A DNA stretch of 64,000 nucleotides from an uncultured Candidatus Saccharibacteria bacterium (GTDB lineage Bacteria; Patescibacteriota; Saccharimonadia; Saccharimonadales; UBA4665). The stretch lies in NCBI GenBank assembly GCA_964432725.1, contig CAYSOP010000002.1, positions 44,354 through 108,353 of the forward strand, given 5' to 3'. Below are positions 12,616-60,743 of this stretch, in pieces. Within the stretch, counting starts at the first letter, position 1. The number at the start of each line of letters is the position of its first letter. Under the pieces are notes generated by a model. The model was given only the letters and a program-made list of their open reading frames with translations. It ran no database searches and was not told the DNA's origin. The translations under genes and the position numbers were made by a program.

Positions 12616-13311
12616 CTACTGCACGAGTAGATTTTGTTGGATTACTTCAGGCGTTAACCCATCTATTGCTACGGCGTGTTCGATATTGAATTTGCCTACG
12701 CGGGTGCGGCGCAGTGCTGGCATGTAGGCGCCAGTATCTAACCCCTTGCCAATGTCTTCTACTAACGAGCGTATGTAGGTGCCACTGGCTACGTGGGCGG
12801 TAAACCACACAAATGGATATTCGTACTTGGTAACAATAATGCGCTCTATGCGGGTGGGGCGTGGCTGCATGTCGGGCGCCTTACCCTCGCGGGCCAGTTT
12901 GTAGGCTCGCTGGCCGTTAATTTTGATGGCAGAAAAAGCTGGTGGGGTTTGCATAATGTCGCCCTCGAACCGGGCGCATGCTATGTGGACCTCTGGCAAG
13001 GTAGGCACTTTGTCGGATATCTTGGTCTTTTCGCCTTCGTCGTCACCCGTAGTGCTGGTAACGCCTAGTTGCATAGTAACGTCATAGCTTTTATCGAGTT
13101 TGGTGTAGAGCGGTACTTTTTTGGTGTAGGTACCGAGCATAAGTACAAGAAGTCCGGTTGCTAGCGGATCAAGCGTGCCCGTATGCCCTACGGGAAAACG
13201 TTTTTTATTAGAAGTATTTAATTCGCTGTTGCCAACAATACGGCGCACTTTATTAACCACATCGAACGATGTCCAGCCAGATGGTTTATCTACAAGTAAA
13301 ATGCCGTTCAT
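12616..13311 (-). CDS. truB: tRNA pseudouridine(55) synthase
   Basis: 'GILLVDKPSGWTSFDVV' and the catalytic 'HTGTLDPLATGLL' motif. Confidence 0.9.
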   Translation of the reverse strand: MNGILLVDKPSGWTSFDVVNKVRRIVGNSELNTSNKKRFPVGHTGTLDPLATGLLVLMLGTYTKKVPLYTKLDKSYDVTMQLGVTSTTGDDEGEKTKISDKVPTLPEVHIACARFEGDIMQTPPAFSAIKINGQRAYKLAREGKAPDMQPRPTRIERIIVTKYEYPFVWFTAHVASGTYIRSLVEDIGKGLDTGAYMPALRRTRVGKFNIEHAVAIDGLTPEVIQQNLLVQ

Positions 13312-22378: not shown

Positions 22379-22615
22379 ATGGATAGTTTAAAAGATTTAC
22401 TCGGTAACTATGGCCCTAAGGAACCCGAGGAAATTACCGCCGTTAAACGCTATATTGCCGATACCTTCAGTGCCGAATCGACCGTAAGTATTCAGGGCAA
22501 TGCCTTGGTTATTACGGTCGCCAGCGCTTCGCTGGCTAACACCCTTCGTCTTCGTTTGCCTGCCATTCAGGCTGTTGCCAATACCCAAAAACGATTAGTG
22601 TTTAGGATTGGCTAG
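22379..22615 (+). CDS. small DUF721/DciA-like protein
   Basis: The pattern '...VSIQGNALVITVASASLANTLRLRLPAIQ...' resembles DUF721. Start moved to the ATG at 22379. Confidence 0.35.
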   Translation: MDSLKDLLGNYGPKEPEEITAVKRYIADTFSAESTVSIQGNALVITVASASLANTLRLRLPAIQAVANTQKRLVFRIG

Positions 22616-23187
22616 TAGCCAAGGCCGGTGCCCTTGGTAACTTCGCGGAAGTCTTTGGCAGGAATCTGGTGGCGGAATAAGCCGCGGATGATTTCGCCGT
22701 TACCCTTGAAGGTGCCAACTTTACATTCGCTGTTCCAAAAACGCTGTATGCTCGAGCCACCGGGGCTAATAATTTCGTAGATGTAGCGTTTACTGGTAGG
22801 ACACAAGCCGCGTTCGTCGGCTTTAGCCTTATCGGTATCACCATTGGTGTAGCCCTGGAATTGTAATGCACGTAAGAACACAGTGTAGGCCTCTTGGTCG
22901 TTGTCTAATGTCTTAGTGGCAGTAACATCGCCATCGTACCCGCTTACAGTTTCGATGGTGCGTTCGTCGCGGCCAACCGTAATACGTACCGTAAAGTGGT
23001 CTTCTTCGCCGTTTACGCGGCTATCTATGCTCAGCCGCGTTACCGTGGCTGTATTAGCGTAGTCGCTGAGGACGGCCTTAGGTGCAACGGTTTCGTTGCC
23101 GCCACCACCGCCCAGGGCCCGGATTATCAAAATAACGACTAAAATGATTAGTCCAAGTGCTACTAGAAAACCTAAAAAATATTTCAT
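22612..23187 (-). CDS. membrane-anchored hypothetical protein
   Basis: N-terminal TM 'FLGFLVALGLIILVVILII', then a ~150-aa extracytoplasmic domain. Confidence 0.6.
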   Translation of the reverse strand: MKYFLGFLVALGLIILVVILIIRALGGGGGNETVAPKAVLSDYANTATVTRLSIDSRVNGEEDHFTVRITVGRDERTIETVSGYDGDVTATKTLDNDQEAYTVFLRALQFQGYTNGDTDKAKADERGLCPTSKRYIYEIISPGGSSIQRFWNSECKVGTFKGNGEIIRGLFRHQIPAKDFREVTKGTGLGY

Positions 23188-23276
23188 AAACTTCGTACCT
23201 ACACCTTAAAAAGTGTATGTAAATAGTACCACATAAGCGCAATAATTACAAGTATGTAGCATGACGAGTTTGCCTC

Positions 23277-23303
23277 GTCATTCCGGACTTGATCCGGAAT
23301 CCA
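23277..23303 (+). repeat. GTCAT...CCA hairpin repeat, copy H2
   Basis: GTCATTCCGGACTTGATCCGGAATCCA. Preceded by the overlapping palindrome ATGACGAG-TTTGC-CTCGTCAT (23261-23281). Confidence 0.8.
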
Positions 23304-23323
23304 AATCAATCAAGTATTCCTCT

Positions 23324-23351
23324 GTCATCCTGAACTCGATTCAGGATCCAG
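23324..23351 (+). repeat. GTCAT...CCAG hairpin repeat, copy H3
   Basis: GTCATCCTGAACTCGATTCAGGATCCAG. One mismatch to H1. Confidence 0.85.
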
Positions 23352-23400
23352 TAAAAGTAAGATTCCTTTTACTTCTTTTCTCTGATCACTATCAAACTGT

Positions 23401-23642
23401 AATGTTACTTCTTTTGTCCCGCCAAAAGAAGTAACCAAGAAAACCTCTCGGTACTCCATCACCCACTCGACTGCTTCCACTAGGTTATTTCGGAGCAAAA
23501 AGGACTCCCTGCGGTCGGCCCTCCGCCGCTCTCCATAGGAAAGCTCCGGGCTAGGATTTTTGCTTGATTCCGAACTAACCTAGCTCCAGCAATCGGGTGG
23601 CTGCTGAGGTACCGAACCCTTGCTGCAAATGGGTGCGTGGGG
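23401..23642 (-). repeat. mosaic intergenic element, copy A (candidate structured RNA)
   Basis: The reverse complement aligns block-wise with 36461-36765, including a 53-nt block (23402-23454 vs 36713-36765) that differs only in a hairpin loop. The stem GCTAGG/CCTAGC is conserved around unrelated loops. Confidence 0.7.
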
Positions 23643-23795
23643 TTAACGCCTAACATGCGCTCGTACTATTGCATGTAAGTGACTTGGCCGAAGTGGAGCC
23701 GGATAGGTAATCTAAAGTAATATAACTTGCATATACCGCGCGTGAGCGGTCACTTATATGGAATGGTACGAGTAGCAACCGGAGGTCTTACCGTA

Positions 23796-24314
23796 TTAGA
23801 TTAGATTCCGGCTCGGGGGCCGGAATGACGGGGTCAGATCGTCGGGTGTAATTTCGTAACGAGTATCGCGGATGACAGCTCCGTGTGCATCTTTCTCGCT
23901 CATATTCAGCCAGAAGCGAGTAGGTTTGGCCACGTACAGCCGCTGTCCCCTGCCCCTGTATTGTTCTATATCTCCCATAAAACCATACTGCTGTTCTTTT
24001 AACGATTTTAGGAGGTTGTATGCACGCTTAAGTTGGGCCGGATCTTCGATAACGGTTGCAGTAGCTTCTACAAACAGACCACCGTGCCCTGCCCGGCTGT
24101 CAAAAATAACCAGAGATACCTTGTGTGTACGGGCAATATTGCGCGAATGCAGGTTGTCCGGATGCGATGACCAATAGCCATGTAGCTGGTCGTCAAACGC
24201 CATAAACACTGGTGAATTATGCGGCGAGCCATCGTCATTTACGGTGGCAATGGCTACATGATGGATGTCGCGCAGCAGTTCTTGGACTCGGGCAATGCGC
24301 TCAGGTGGAATCAT
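23796..24314 (-). CDS. pyridoxamine 5'-phosphate oxidase-family (FMN-binding split-barrel) protein
   Basis: The pattern 'HHVAIATVNDDGSPHNSPVFMAFDD...YWSSHPDNLHSRNI' matches the family. Confidence 0.75.
   Translation of the reverse strand: MIPPERIARVQELLRDIHHVAIATVNDDGSPHNSPVFMAFDDQLHGYWSSHPDNLHSRNIARTHKVSLVIFDSRAGHGGLFVEATATVIEDPAQLKRAYNLLKSLKEQQYGFMGDIEQYRGRGQRLYVAKPTRFWLNMSEKDAHGAVIRDTRYEITPDDLTPSFRPPSRNLI
23802..23829 (-). repeat. GTCAT...hairpin repeat, copy H8, embedded in the 3' end of a CDS
   Basis: The minus strand reads GTCATTCCGGCCCCCGAGCCGGAATCTA. It encodes part of the last 11 codons ('SFRPPSRNLI') of the 23796-24314 gene. Confidence 0.7.
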
Positions 24315-28344: not shown

Positions 28345-29535
28345 TTAATCAACGTACGCTTCAAGTTGCGCTTTCGCTACCGCAGAACTCAATTTCTTCA
28401 TAGCAGCAATCTTCGTTACAGATATACCCTGACGAGTAACACCATACTCGGCACCGATTTCGGCTAAGCTCATTTGCTGGCCACCTAAGCCAAAGTACTT
28501 ACGGACAATGTCAGCCTCGCGGTCGCTCAAGAGAGTGTCTAACGCGTTCTCTATAGCACCTGGAAGCTGACGTTTAACCGTCTGTTTGTGTACATCTTGG
28601 TCGGGGTCGGGAATAAAGTCGCCCAATTGTGCATCGCTATCATGACCGATGGGCTGCTGGTAGCTTATGGGCTCGCGGGCATCTTGGATAATCTCGCTTA
28701 ATTTTTCGGGCGTCATATCCATTTCTATGGCCAACTCTGCTGCTGTGGGCTCGCGCCCAAGCGTTTGCGCCATTTGGCGTTGAGTCCTGTGCAACGCGTT
28801 AATTGCAGTTACCTTGTACTCCGGTATACGAATGGTGCGGGCTTGGGCGGCAATAGCGCGGGTAATCGCCTGGCGGATCCACCAGGTAGCGCAGGTACTA
28901 AATTTATTACCCCTTGCGTAATCAAATTCCTCTGCTGCCGCTTTGTACAACCCCACGTTTCCCTCTTGTATAAGGTCTAAAAACTCCATCCCCCTACCCG
29001 TATATCGATTAGCTATACTAACTACCAACCGCAAATTAGCTTCGATTAGATCCTTTTTGGCTTGGTTACCGTCACGTACGCGCCGGCTTAGGTCGTTCTT
29101 AAGCTGATCATCGACCTGCAAGTCTTTACGCTTTTCTGCCGAAGCTAACCGCTCCGCAGCAGATGCACCTGCCTCGATCCGCTTTGCCAATTCCACTTCT
29201 TGTTCGGTAGTAATACGCGATATTTTACCGATTTTATTCAAGTAGGCCTTTACGGAACGGGCGCCGCTATACGTATCCGCAGTTTGGAGTGTATCTTCGG
29301 CCGAGGCCTCTTCTTGACCATCCAAATTAAATAATTCACCATCCGCCGCTGCCTGAGGTGTATCTGCTTCGATGATGGCTGTCTTACTAAGCGCAACAGC
29401 AGCCGCAGGCAACACAACCGCTCCAGCAGCGTCTGGGGTATGGGCCATATTGGGCGCTGTGCCGTCGGGAGGAATTGGCAGTAAATAAGCCGCTTCGTTA
29501 CCGGGTGACAAGTCCCTATTTTGTTGCTCAAACAT
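28345..29535 (-). CDS. RNA polymerase sigma-70 family factor (second RpoD-like paralog)
   Basis: Region 2 '[27 protein letters not shown]', region 3 and region 4.2 HTH '[20 protein letters not shown]'. Confidence 0.85.
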
Positions 29536-33299: not shown

Positions 33300-33326
33300 C
33301 TGGATTCCCGCCTTCGCGGGAATGAC
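33300..33326 (-). repeat. GTCAT...CCAG hairpin repeat, copy H4
   Basis: The minus strand reads GTCATTCCCGCGAAGGCGGGAATCCAG. Lies between the two isoprenoid genes. Confidence 0.8.
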
Positions 33327-33331
33327 GGTAA

Positions 33332-36115: not shown

Positions 36116-36412
36116 TCAAAACGACTGTAGAATCTTTTTGAGTATCTGTTCAAAGTTGTAACCATACTTCTCCGGATGGCGCGAAACATCTTGCTCTAAT
36201 GCGTCGACATCAACCCAAGCTACAGTGTCCAATTCACTTACCAACCCAGGATCTTTCTTTTTGATAAGCGCCCGCTGCGCCATTAGAACCTGATTATGTG
36301 AGTTAACTATGATCAGCCGCGCCACGCGGTAAATATCCTCGGGTGCAAATGAGTCACGATTCTTATGTCCAATAACCTCATCGCCTTCGTCAACAATAAC
36401 TAAATCAACCAT
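36116..36412 (-). CDS. Nudix-like remnant lacking the Nudix box (98 aa)
   Basis: Start moved to the ATG at 36412 behind GGAGAA. The N-terminus 'DLVIVDEGDEVIGHKNRD...RVARLIIVNSHNQVLMAQRALIKKKDPG' is IDI/Nudix-like but jumps straight to a C-terminal segment. Confidence 0.5.
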   Translation of the reverse strand: MVDLVIVDEGDEVIGHKNRDSFAPEDIYRVARLIIVNSHNQVLMAQRALIKKKDPGLVSELDTVAWVDVDALEQDVSRHPEKYGYNFEQILKKILQSF

Positions 36413-36460
36413 TTCTCCAGTATGATCTCCAAGTATCCAAAAATACCACCTCGTCGTTAG

Positions 36461-36765
36461 CCCCACCACACCATTTGCAGCCTGGGTTCGGAACCTCTGG
36501 CCAGACCCGATTGCCGGAAAGGAGCTAGGCTGGAGTAGAGCAGCAGGCCTAGCCCCGGAATAGTCATATGGAAAATAAGGGAGGGGCCGACTGGAGCGAT
36601 TAGCGGAAGGAGTTCTTGCTGGAGTGTGCAAGTCTGCACACGAGTATTCTCGGCTCTGATTGGCCATGCAGTACAAGACTGTTTGCGAGTACATAGTCGA
36701 GTGGCTGACACTGTACCGAGAGGTTTTCTTGGTTACTTCTTTTGGCGGCCCAAAAGAAGTAACAT
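36461..36765 (+). repeat. mosaic intergenic element, copy B (candidate structured RNA)
   Basis: Shares blocks X and Z with copy A (reverse complement of 23401-23642). Shares block Y (36624-36685) with copy C (41578-41638). Ends in a 13-bp hairpin GTTACTTCTTTTG/CAAAAGAAGTAAC. Confidence 0.7.
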
Positions 36766-36834
36766 GAACGCCTGACGCCAGTCAGAAGAAAGACTGGTCG
36801 AAGAAAACAAAAAGGACTTTGGGTAGGCGTTTGC

Positions 36835-37986
36835 CTATTTGATGTAATCGTGAAGCTTGCGGGCGTCTTTGTGCTTGCGGAGTTTGGCCAGAGCTTTTGC
36901 TTCTATTTGGCGAATACGTTCGCGTGTTACGCTAAACTCTTGACCCACTTCTTCTAGGGTGTGCTGCTTGCCGTCTTCTAGGCCGAAACGCAGCTTAATA
37001 ATCTTTTGTTCGCGCTCGGTTAGGGCGGCCAGCATGTCTTTTACCTGCTCTTTTAACAGCTGGTTTGTAGCCGATTCTTCCGGGCTAATGGTGTCTTCGT
37101 CCTCGATAAAGTCGGCAAGCACTGACTCTTCTTCGTCGTCGCGAATAGAGGCATCAAGCGAGCTAATATCTTGCTTGATCTTCATGATGTGCTCTACTTT
37201 GTCTACCTCTATTTCCATAGCAGCGGCGATTTCTTCGTTGGAAGGTTCGCGGTTGAGTTCCTGGGTTAGACGGCGCTGCGTACGCAGTAGCTTGTTGATG
37301 GTCTCTACCATGTGCACCGGAATACGAATGGTGCGGGCTTGGTCGGCAATAGCACGGGTAATCGCCTGGCGGATCCACCAGGTAGCGTAGGTACTAAACT
37401 TAAAACCTTTGTCCGGGTCAAACTTTTCGACGGCACGCAATAGGCCGGTGTTGCCTTCTTGAATAAGATCAAGCAGGTCTAGACCACGGCCAACATACCG
37501 CTTGGCAATACTGACTACCAAACGCATGTTTGCTTCGGCCATTTTGTCTTTGGCGTCTTTATCGCCGGCAACAACGCGTTGGGCCAATGCTAATTCTTCT
37601 TCGGCGTTTAATAGCGGGATCTTACCGATTTCACGCAGGTATAAACGGACGCTGTCGTCGGCAATGTCGTCCAGGTAATGTTGGTCTTCGGTTATAACTT
37701 CTTCGCCGTCTTCGGCTGTCCACTCATCACTGATTTCTACCGGTTCGTCCTCAACGGGAGCGACCGTTGTCGTAACTTGTATGTTCATATCGGCCAGCTC
37801 GGTATAGAGCTTGTCTAGTACATCGGCGTTTTCGGGTACGTCGGCAATAGCCGTGGTTATGTCGCGCTGATCAATTGCGCCAGCCTTCTTAGCCTTGGCA
37901 ACAAGGTCTTTGCGGGCCTGCTCTAGATCGGGAGCGGCTTCGTTATTCTTGGGTTCGTTCTTCTTTGCTTTAGGCACTTGAAGCAC
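36835..37986 (-). CDS. rpoD: primary RNA polymerase sigma factor
   Basis: '[37 protein letters not shown]' and region 4.2 '[19 protein letters not shown]'. Lies in a dnaG-rpoD operon with a 17-nt overlap. Confidence 0.9.
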
Positions 37987-39730: not shown

Positions 39731-39893
39731 TGAACTCCTTACATATCTCCCTGCAAAAAGCGAAAAATTATCTGACGAGTGCCAGGTGTCAGTTCTTGTA
39801 AGGAAGCGTAACGGTAGTTACGGTGACGAGCAAAACTGATATCTAGTGCCGTTAGATAATTTTGCAGCCGCAGGGAGATATGTAAGGAGTTCA
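39731..39893. repeat. long inverted repeat abutting the dnaG start (arms 39731-39777 and 39850-39893)
   Basis: The 24-nt perfect cores TGAACTCCTTACATATCTCCCTGC (39731-39754) and GCAGGGAGATATGTAAGGAGTTCA (39870-39893) are extended imperfectly to ~45 nt. The 72-nt spacer has its own CGTAAC-GGTA-GTTACG hairpin. Confidence 0.8.
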
Positions 39894-41566: not shown

Positions 41567-41675
41567 GTCATCCTGGAACATGCCAGTGGCATGTGAGTAT
41601 TCTCGGCTGTGATTGGCCATACAGTACAAGACTGTTTGGTAGATATAGGGTGGGTCGACTCGATTCAGGATCCAG
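41567..41675 (+). repeat. mosaic intergenic element, copy C: GTCAT...CCAG hairpin split by an ~80-nt insert containing block Y
   Basis: GTCATCCTGGAAC at 41567-41579 and CTCGATTCAGGATCCAG at 41659-41675 flank 41578-41638. That segment matches 36624-36685 (GAGTATTCTCGGCT.TGATTGGCCAT.CAGTACAAGACTGTTTG). Confidence 0.7.
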
Positions 41676-41696
41676 TTATAATGAATTCCATTTTTA

Positions 41697-41724
41697 CTGG
41701 ATTCCGGGTCAAGCCCGGAATGAC
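41697..41724 (-). repeat. GTCAT...CCAG hairpin repeat, copy H5
   Basis: The minus strand reads GTCATTCCGGGCTTGACCCGGAATCCAG. Confidence 0.8.
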
Positions 41725-41732
41725 AGTGGCAA

Positions 41733-47473: not shown

Positions 47474-47533
47474 CTAGCCAAGCTCCTTCTTGAAGGCTTC
47501 TATTAACACCACCGGCGCAGGATTAAGGCCGTT
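47474..47533 (-). repeat. direct repeat DR-L: displaced copy of the last 19 codons plus stop of the PGI/PMI gene
   Basis: 58 of 60 nt are identical to 56642-56701. Both differences are synonymous in the PGI/PMI frame. Confidence 0.9.
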
Positions 47534-56641: not shown

Positions 56642-56701
56642 CTAGCCGAGCTCTTTCTTGAAGGCTTCTATTAACACCACCGGCGCAGGATTAAGGCCGT
56701 T
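56642..56701 (-). repeat. direct repeat DR-R (3' end of the PGI/PMI gene)
   Basis: Partner of 47474-47533. Confidence 0.9.
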
Positions 56702-58947: not shown

Positions 58948-58995
58948 ACAGATACCAAAAAGGCGCTCGCTGGCGGGCGCCTTTTTGGTATCTGT
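58948..58995 (-). terminator. intrinsic terminator of groES-groEL
   Basis: ~18-bp stem ACAGATACCAAAAAGGCGC / GCGCCTTTTTGGTATCTGT, followed on the minus strand by GCTTTTTTAT. Confidence 0.75.
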
Positions 58996-60714: not shown

Positions 60715-60743
60715 CTGAATCCTGAGTCCGTCCTCAGGATGAC
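60715..60743 (-). repeat. GTCAT...CAG hairpin repeat, copy H7 (groES-groEL spacer)
   Basis: The minus strand reads GTCATCCTGAGGACGGACTCAGGATTCAG. Confidence 0.75.

Follow-up and report, generated by a model that had tools for sequence, protein, structure and literature searches.

A 64,000-nt stretch of the genome of an uncultured Candidatus Saccharibacteria bacterium, referred to here as the window, carries two diverged copies of a non-coding element in exceptionally long intergenic gaps. The copies are homologous and mosaic, the element is restricted to this lineage, short hairpins are enriched in the window, and sequence modules are shared among three of its gaps. We favor, at about even confidence, the explanation that the element is a mosaic DNA repeat, rich in hairpins and specific to this lineage, of the same general kind as NIME, BIME, and ERIC. 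We see it as a by-product of repeat dynamics and not as a gene.

The element and its two copies

The gaps at 23188-23795 (608 nt, gap A) and 36413-36834 (422 nt, gap B) are the two largest ORF-poor stretches of the window. An earlier note on this DNA had singled them out as exceptional and had claimed that they share blocks in reverse-complement orientation, and this homology is borne out. The reverse complement of 23401-23648 (copy A, 248 nt) aligns block-wise with 36458-36765 (copy B, 308 nt) in MAFFT, slightly beyond the first limits of 23401-23642 and 36461-36765, and self-blastn joins the minus strand of copy A to the plus strand of copy B with E values of 3e-20 and 9e-8. All of the shared blocks originally listed are present, among them CCCGATTGCYGG, GGGCCGAC, and AGTCGAGTGG. 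Two of the blocks, the 27-nt CCATTTGCAGCNNGGGTTCGGNACCTC and the first 36 nt of a 53-nt block, have exactly two matches each in the window, and neither turns up in any of 100 shuffles. With only two copies of the element within 64 kb, "repeat family" refers to a small sample.

One end of the element is formed by the nearly identical 53-nt block (23402..23454 in copy A and 36713..36765 in copy B). As described before, the copies differ here at two positions, both within the loop of a hairpin. This hairpin is a perfect 13-bp stem in copy A (23404-23416 paired with 23423-23435), and one of the two loop differences gives copy B a 14th pair (36732-36745 with 36750-36763). The same block carries a small terminator-like hairpin in each copy (23452-23434 on the minus strand and 36715-36733 on the plus strand). 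Two further details of the first description hold as well: the GCTAGG...CCTAGC stem encloses loops of 23 and 18 nt, and the CUGG/CCGG pairing of copy A becomes CCGG/CCGG in copy B. The block at the other end of copy A (23585..23648; GTTAACCCCAC..CCATTTGCAGC..GGGTTCGGTACCTC..CCCGATTGC) is 82% identical to its counterpart at 36455..36518 and corresponds to the part that is also recognizable in the genome of a sister species (L006, positions 2222-2258). Copy A alone contains a long imperfect palindrome (23448..23615), the 47-nt arms of which (23448-23494 and 23569-23615) are 77% complementary, and it is adjoined by a separate 113-nt hairpin module (23660..23772) with 24-nt arms that are 88% complementary.

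The surroundings of the two copies differ. Copy A has the PNPOx gene (23796-24314) on one side and, on the other, the conserved promoter that belongs to a gene for a 191-aa protein (22612-23187); both genes are on the minus strand, and copy A is sense to them. The neighbors of copy B, likewise on the minus strand, are an ORF for a 98-aa NUDIX-like fragment (36116-36412) and rpoD (36835-37986); copy B faces the 3′ end of rpoD and is antisense to this gene. The copies thus have opposite orientations relative to local transcription, which argues against a role inside the neighboring mRNAs. A terminator-like hairpin of rpoD (36771..36786, minus) directly precedes the element end ATGTTACTTCTTTTG, and the stretch from this hairpin to ATGTTACTT-TTTTG is kept in L006. 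In Pfam, the 98-aa ORF matches weakly as an N-terminal fragment of NUDIX (E = 0.095), and it has tblastn matches beside polA in two distant relatives (L026 and L028); like the PNPOx gene it is lineage-specific, and it is probably a gene remnant. No conserved ORF spans the shared blocks, as was pointed out earlier, and copy A has stops in all six frames. A 192-aa ORF that overlaps gap B does not match any family, and the repeat provides the codons for its N-terminal half.

The remainder of the window is housekeeping DNA (polA, a NUDIX gene, the PNPOx gene, dnaG, rpoD, argS, mscL, and groEL) and also encodes a sigma-factor paralogue and a two-component system; a transposase, integrase, or reverse transcriptase was not found in it. 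In a second assembly of the same strain (GCA_035479775.1), gaps of the same sizes, 608 and 422 nt, are located inside contigs of 9.5 and 7.8 kb, and the contig across gap A is 99.98% identical to the window. Therefore, the repeats are not the result of mis-assembly.

Mosaic composition and a module shared with a third gap

Conservation between the two copies is uneven. The 3′ end block (54 alignment columns) has four mismatches and is 93% identical, while 36% of the ungapped columns differ in the rest of the alignment, which includes 63 gapped columns (binomial P about 1e-6). Moreover, copy B contains a nested insertion at a position where copy A has an alignment gap. This insertion comprises a 44-nt sequence, module M (36642-36685), together with a 7-bp hairpin (36624-36641). 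A second copy of module M, 95% identical, is located at 41595-41638 in a third gap (gap C, 41567..41675), where the rest of the element is lacking and where a hairpin of different sequence (41578-41594) precedes it. The unit in gap C is placed between GTCATCCTGGAA (41567-41578) and ACTCGATTCAGGATCCAG (41658-41675), and judged by their sequence these two read like the halves of one split NTS-type hairpin (see below). Between the two hairpin-plus-module units (36624-36685 and 41578-41638), four of the seven pairs in the 7-bp stem are changed on both sides (GTGTGCA/TGCACAC versus ACATGCC/GGCATGT); this stem shows the only real compensatory pattern in these gaps.

In addition, blastn identifies short-hairpin flanks that are common to 1157-1204, 23270-23373, and 41658-41732. 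Within 64 kb, the element has two copies, module M two, and the hairpin flanks three. The uneven conservation, the shared module M, the NTS-type hairpins, and the absence of the element at syntenic sites support the suggestion in the earlier note that the gaps represent recombination-shuffled, NIME-like mosaics.

NTS/dRS3-type hairpins in the window

Hairpins of the form GTCAT-stem-loop-stem-GGAWYC occur seven times in the window, where 0.08 would be expected. Three of them belong to gap A: two at 23277-23302 and 23324-23349, both on the plus strand, and one that overlaps the last codons of the PNPOx ORF (23804-23829, minus). The other four, all on the minus strand, are at 1174-1199, 33302-33326, 41699-41724, and 60717-60743. 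The hairpin at 33302-33326, outside the gaps, is an exact dRS3, and with its flanks (33300-33327, CGTCATTCCCGCGAAGGCGGGAATCCAG) it is an exact match to the Neisseria NTS consensus CGTCATTCCCGCGMAVGCGGGAATCYRG, which contains dRS3 (ATTCCC-N8-GGGAAT) (PMC11893778). The remaining six are stem variants that share the GTCAT...GGAWYC frame. In Neisseria, the GIY-YIG nuclease SsnA, a modulator of transformation, cuts NTS/dRS3 hairpins in single-stranded DNA (PMC11893778). The hairpin at 33302-33326 is missing from L006, where its two flanking genes abut, and loci from other genomes give about five matches to the hairpin pattern in roughly 0.9 Mb. On sequence grounds, these data suggest that an Ssn-related hairpin family has expanded in this Saccharimonadales lineage. 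The presence and apparent expansion of Neisseria-type NTS/dRS3 hairpins in a Saccharimonadales genome are the most interesting by-product of the analysis.

With respect to the element, the hairpin at 23804-23829 is inverted relative to the pair at 23277-23349, so that gap A is bracketed by inverted hairpins. Other modules separate copy A from the nearest NTS-type hairpins, which are about 155 nt and 51 nt away on its two sides, and no such hairpin is present anywhere in the 422-nt gap of copy B. An Ssn gene is defined as encoding a cd10448 GIY-YIG protein of about 95 aa, typically flanked by the hairpins; a crude motif regex detected no GIY-YIG-like ORF in the window or in loci totaling about 1 Mb.

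The NTS-type hairpin contributes the final ~11 codons of the PNPOx ORF (23796-23829). PNPOx homologues are 160-168 aa long and cover only 91-93% of the 172-aa query, and the hairpin therefore appears to have replaced or extended the C terminus of the protein.

Distribution and the corresponding sites in a sister species

Sixty loci from relatives (0.93 Mb), situated around polA or dnaG-rpoD, were searched with blastn and nhmmer --max. Apart from the promoter region of the 191-aa gene and a relic in L006, no homologue of the element was found in them. Pattern searches with single blocks were likewise negative: one 5′-end-block pattern gave no hits among GTDB species genomes, one 3′-block pattern gave none in JGI metagenomes, and one degenerate 5′-end-block pattern gave four hits in JGI metagenomes, all of them chance matches on high-GC contigs. 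Four block patterns had no hits in IMG/VR, and blastn with the gap of copy B gave no match in plasmid and phage collections. The element is lineage-specific.

The sister species L006, with a PolA 86% identical to that of the window, is informative at both sites. At site A, the PNPOx gene and the whole 608-nt gap are missing, and about 70 nt separate the NUDIX gene from the 191-aa gene. The sequences become homologous again just ahead of the -35 box in the conserved promoter that belongs to the latter (TTGTAA/TTGAAA, a 17-nt spacer, and TACTAT/TAATAT). At site B, L006 has a mini version of ~50 nt in which the ends of the element are fused: the rpoD 3′ region continues to ATGTTACTT-TTTTG and is followed directly by GTACCGAAC..GGCTGC..GGTGGGGCT, the other end of the element. 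The relic aligns with scores of 33 and 31, compared with shuffle maxima of 29 and 25. The relic suggests that site B, in its ~50-nt form, is ancestral to the genus. The long versions represent either an internal gain in the lineage of the window or a loss of the interior in L006, and of the two copies, A is probably secondary.

In other relatives, the sequence downstream of rpoD is unrelated, or there is no gap at this place. In L003 (CP025011.1, TM7 YM_S32), a perfect palindrome of unrelated sequence with ~29-nt arms is present downstream of rpoD at about 12980-13090; long hairpin insertions at this place seem to be recurrent in the group.

Other repeats in the window

A 60-nt direct repeat, 97% identical (47474-47533 and 56642-56701), duplicates sequence from the 3′ end of the gene for phosphoglucose isomerase (PGI). 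It brackets 9.1 kb that encode a 2360-aa PA14/GLEYA/RHS-repeat protein and a 198-aa ORF, and in L003 only about 1.4 kb separate the response-regulator gene from the PGI gene. The 9.1-kb segment looks like an inserted island with an att-like duplication. Furthermore, rpoD and the gene for its sigma-70 paralogue (28345-29535) share 97 nt at 92% identity (28810-28906 and 37306-37402), which could be due to gene conversion between the paralogues; one contig of GCA_035479775.1 ends inside rpoD.

A perfect 24-nt inverted repeat (39731-39754 and 39870-39893) marks the ends of the intergenic region between the divergent dnaG and 277-aa ORF and extends into the annotated start of the latter. As a consequence of this repeat, the two genes seem to have identical leaders containing the ribosome binding site (TGAACTCCTTACATATCTCCCTGC and its complement). 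Finally, a near-perfect 23-bp hairpin with A/T runs on both sides (58948-58995), located between a 163-aa ORF and groEL, looks like a bidirectional terminator.

Folding, pairing, and rival explanations

The earlier note offered a new structured RNA as one of its two readings and described the variation between the copies as stem-preserving. Five helices are drawable in either copy (TCGGNAC/GTACCGA, ACCCGATTGC/NNAGTCGAGT, CYGG/CCGG, GCTAGG/CCTAGC, and the terminal 13-bp hairpin), and the stems are conserved while the loops differ. Among the 40 pairs that the helices comprise, 35 are identical, two carry one-sided changes, and three are unpaired in at least one copy; none of the 40 shows a compensatory change, although with two sequences only this is a test of low power. 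The U-G to C-G change constitutes the sole argument for one strand, and conserved palindromic blocks with different loops are a pattern that DNA-level hairpin repeats also show.

The copies could be paralogous genes for small structured RNAs, or one functional and one decaying copy, on the strand originally proposed, each RNA ending at the hairpin ACCGAGAGG-UUU-UCUUGGU followed by UACUUCUUUU. We consider this explanation rather unlikely. The best point for an RNA is the small, weak terminator-like hairpin with its U-rich run, which has the same orientation in both copies on that strand, and the conserved blocks are mutually complementary in both (P1, P2, H1, H2, and the 13-bp hairpin). The 3′ block is also much more conserved than the remainder, coding potential is absent, and the folding z score of copy A against shuffles is -5.5. 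The opposite strand, however, folds equally well or better (-5.9 in copy A), and the two strands of copy B give marginal values of -1.9 and -2.4, the former barely beyond shuffles. The strong fold of copy A on both strands results from the imperfect palindrome with 47-nt arms, which copy B lacks, and the long-hairpin fold was therefore dismissed as a structure shared by the copies. A scan of the upstream sequences gave no sigma-70-like promoter for copy A or copy B, and the homology has an abrupt start before which nothing is shared. Moreover, apart from the L006 relic, the element is missing from every relative searched, the sister species included, and an unrelated repeat module is nested in copy B. 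Nor did a known RNA family match the element: with Rfam 15, no match reached the gathering score anywhere in the window, and in scans with E up to 10 the two gaps matched only eukaryotic or viral families at chance level. ARAGORN found no tRNA or tmRNA. With compensatory pairs, a promoter, and an Rfam match all lacking and both strands able to fold, the structured-RNA reading is unsupported.

Specific candidates were considered individually. A 6S RNA resembles copy A in having a long irregular hairpin (about 170 nt here), and copy B adjoins rpoD; it was rejected since scans with E up to 10 gave no RF00013-type match, copy B does not share the long hairpin, and, unlike a housekeeping RNA, the element is absent from relatives. 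SRP RNA, RNase P RNA, tmRNA, a tRNA-like T-arm, a sigma-54 promoter, a retron, a group II intron fragment, and oriC/DnaA boxes were rejected by reading the sequence. An integron attC site was discarded as well, given that GTTAGGC adjoins copy A but not copy B and that an inverse core and an integrase are lacking.

A mobile origin has to be weighed against the same data. IS200/IS605-type elements insert without terminal inverted repeats and without target duplications. A non-autonomous MITE, or a palindrome-associated element of the IS200/IS605 type, with its transposase elsewhere in the genome and the perfect subterminal hairpin as recognition site, would fit an element that is present at two unrelated loci with sharp homology ends (GTTAR... 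and ...GTAACAT), has a perfect 13-14-bp hairpin at a distance of 2 nt from one of its ends, includes a long imperfect inverted repeat in copy A, and is absent from the syntenic site A of the sister species. In size (about 250-300 nt), hairpin content, and lack of coding capacity, it also resembles MITEs such as Correia elements and the IS200/IS605-derived palindrome-associated elements with their TnpB/IscB guide-RNA scaffolds, as it does in the perfect hairpin at one boundary. Nevertheless, we regard this origin as unlikely. The copies are highly divergent and mosaic, with large internal replacements, unlike recently transposed MITEs. The element ends, GTTARCCCCAC and GAAGTAACAT, have only GTTA/TAAC in common and hence do not form terminal inverted repeats, and the flanks (..GTTAGGC / TACAGT.. 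for copy A and ..CTCGTC / GAACGC.. for copy B) show neither a target duplication nor a common target motif. The absence of terminal inverted repeats and target duplications would suit an IS200/IS605-type element. The perfect hairpin is found at one end only, the flanks share no motif, a transposase was not found in the window or the loci, tnpA, tnpB, and iscB are not seen nearby, and Rfam gave no match. Furthermore, the gap of copy B has no similarity in phage and plasmid collections, and the L006 relic makes site B look ancestral rather than newly inserted. That the element is debris, i.e., decayed duplicated coding or UTR sequence carried along with the PNPOx gene and the NUDIX fragment, is very improbable. 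Both copies do adjoin lineage-specific small genes, one of them a weak NUDIX fragment. Yet the copies have no conserved frame in common, and every frame of copy A is interrupted by stops, for which reason a coding relic was rejected; in addition, the neighboring gene differs in family and relative orientation, the conserved blocks are palindromic and not codon-like, and the PNPOx homologues (the closest at 69% identity) are located on other contigs.

The favored explanation, a mosaic DNA repeat, is supported by the lineage variability of both sites, the opposite orientations of the copies, and the equal folding of both strands. Against it, the element is linked to the NTS-type hairpins by neighborhood only, given that the gap of copy B has no such hairpin, and an Ssn-like GIY-YIG gene, a Y1 transposase, and a recombinase were not found in the window or in loci totaling about 1 Mb. 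Selection on an RNA or on a structure bound by protein could equally account for the nearly identical 53-nt block and for the complementarity, in both copies, of TCGGNAC/GTACCGA and of ACCCGATTGC/NNAGTCGAGT, and the terminator-like hairpin with its U-rich run, in the same orientation in both copies, likewise counts against a pure DNA repeat.

Comparison with known repeat systems

The likeness to NIMEs lies in the patchworks of intergenic modules common to different gaps, in the same type of hairpin (ATTCCC-N8-GGGAAT within CGTCATTCCCGCGMAVGCGGGAATCYRG, with one exact consensus and six stem variants), and in the location beside genes that vary between close relatives. In Neisseria, dRS3 hairpins flank the RS modules of NIME arrays, and these modules are 19-214 nt long (PMC1797815), whereas the element is 248-308 nt long and is not bracketed by hairpins on each side, copy B having none. 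Strict NIME membership fails for these two reasons, while the mosaic character and the dRS3/NTS hairpin in the genome leave the broader "NIME-like" label of the earlier note in place. Other differences are the few hairpins per gap, which do not form regular arrays, the lack of a visible Ssn nuclease or dRS3-specific recombinase, and the host phylum, Patescibacteria/CPR.

Extragenic repeats of other bacteria offer further parallels. ERIC/IRU and BIME/REP of enterobacteria and BOX of Streptococcus pneumoniae are imperfect palindromes or modular units with short (internally deleted) and long (internally inserted) variants. They occur in either orientation relative to transcription, and their strands fold equally. 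The mini version in L006 and the long versions in the window mirror the short and long forms of ERIC. In contrast to these families, the element has two copies here and no sequence similarity to them, and a RAYT/TnpA-REP gene was not seen.

A model for the origin of the element

The order of events, the enzyme, and any function are what we infer from these comparisons. An ancestral short sequence downstream of rpoD, of which the ~50-nt form in the sister species would be the remnant, may have been enlarged by internal insertions. The unit would then have been copied to a second site beside the lineage-specific PNPOx gene, and the copies would have diverged through patchwise replacement and nested insertion, as exemplified by module M. 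One end block may have been kept or re-homogenized by gene conversion, by intrastrand template switching that keeps the 13-14-bp hairpin perfect, or by some other constraint. In Neisseria, NTS/dRS3-type hairpins mark NIME arrays that are prone to recombination, and here the shuffling might be driven by breaks or recombination at extruded hairpins of this type. Any function would probably be structural and independent of orientation, e.g., that of a transcription barrier or insulator between genes.

A bolder version of this model, which we think improbable, is a saccharibacterial NIME-like system in which NTS/dRS3-type single-stranded DNA hairpins, as substrates of Ssn-type nucleases, seed nested insertion and shuffling of larger modules with hairpins, and in which the element is an undescribed class of module that spreads or is homogenized by means of its perfect terminal hairpin. 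The insertion of module M in what resembles a split hairpin and the 7-bp stem with four doubly changed pairs would be footprints of such a mechanism. A species-specific structured RNA would be the rarer alternative to it.

Implications for Saccharimonadales genomes

If the mosaic-repeat explanation is correct, the reduced genomes of CPR bacteria and Saccharimonadales are not uniformly compact, and mosaic, hairpin-rich intergenic repeats can accumulate in them at sites of gene gain and loss. Gaps of this kind should then not be annotated as RNA genes or ORFs (e.g., the 192-aa ORF) without evidence of expression. It would also mean that the Neisseria-type dRS3/NTS hairpin, the target of SsnA, is present and expanded in a Saccharimonadales lineage. 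Saccharibacteria have been reported to be naturally competent. In this context, the repeats would point to a possible link with competence and gene exchange in these bacteria.
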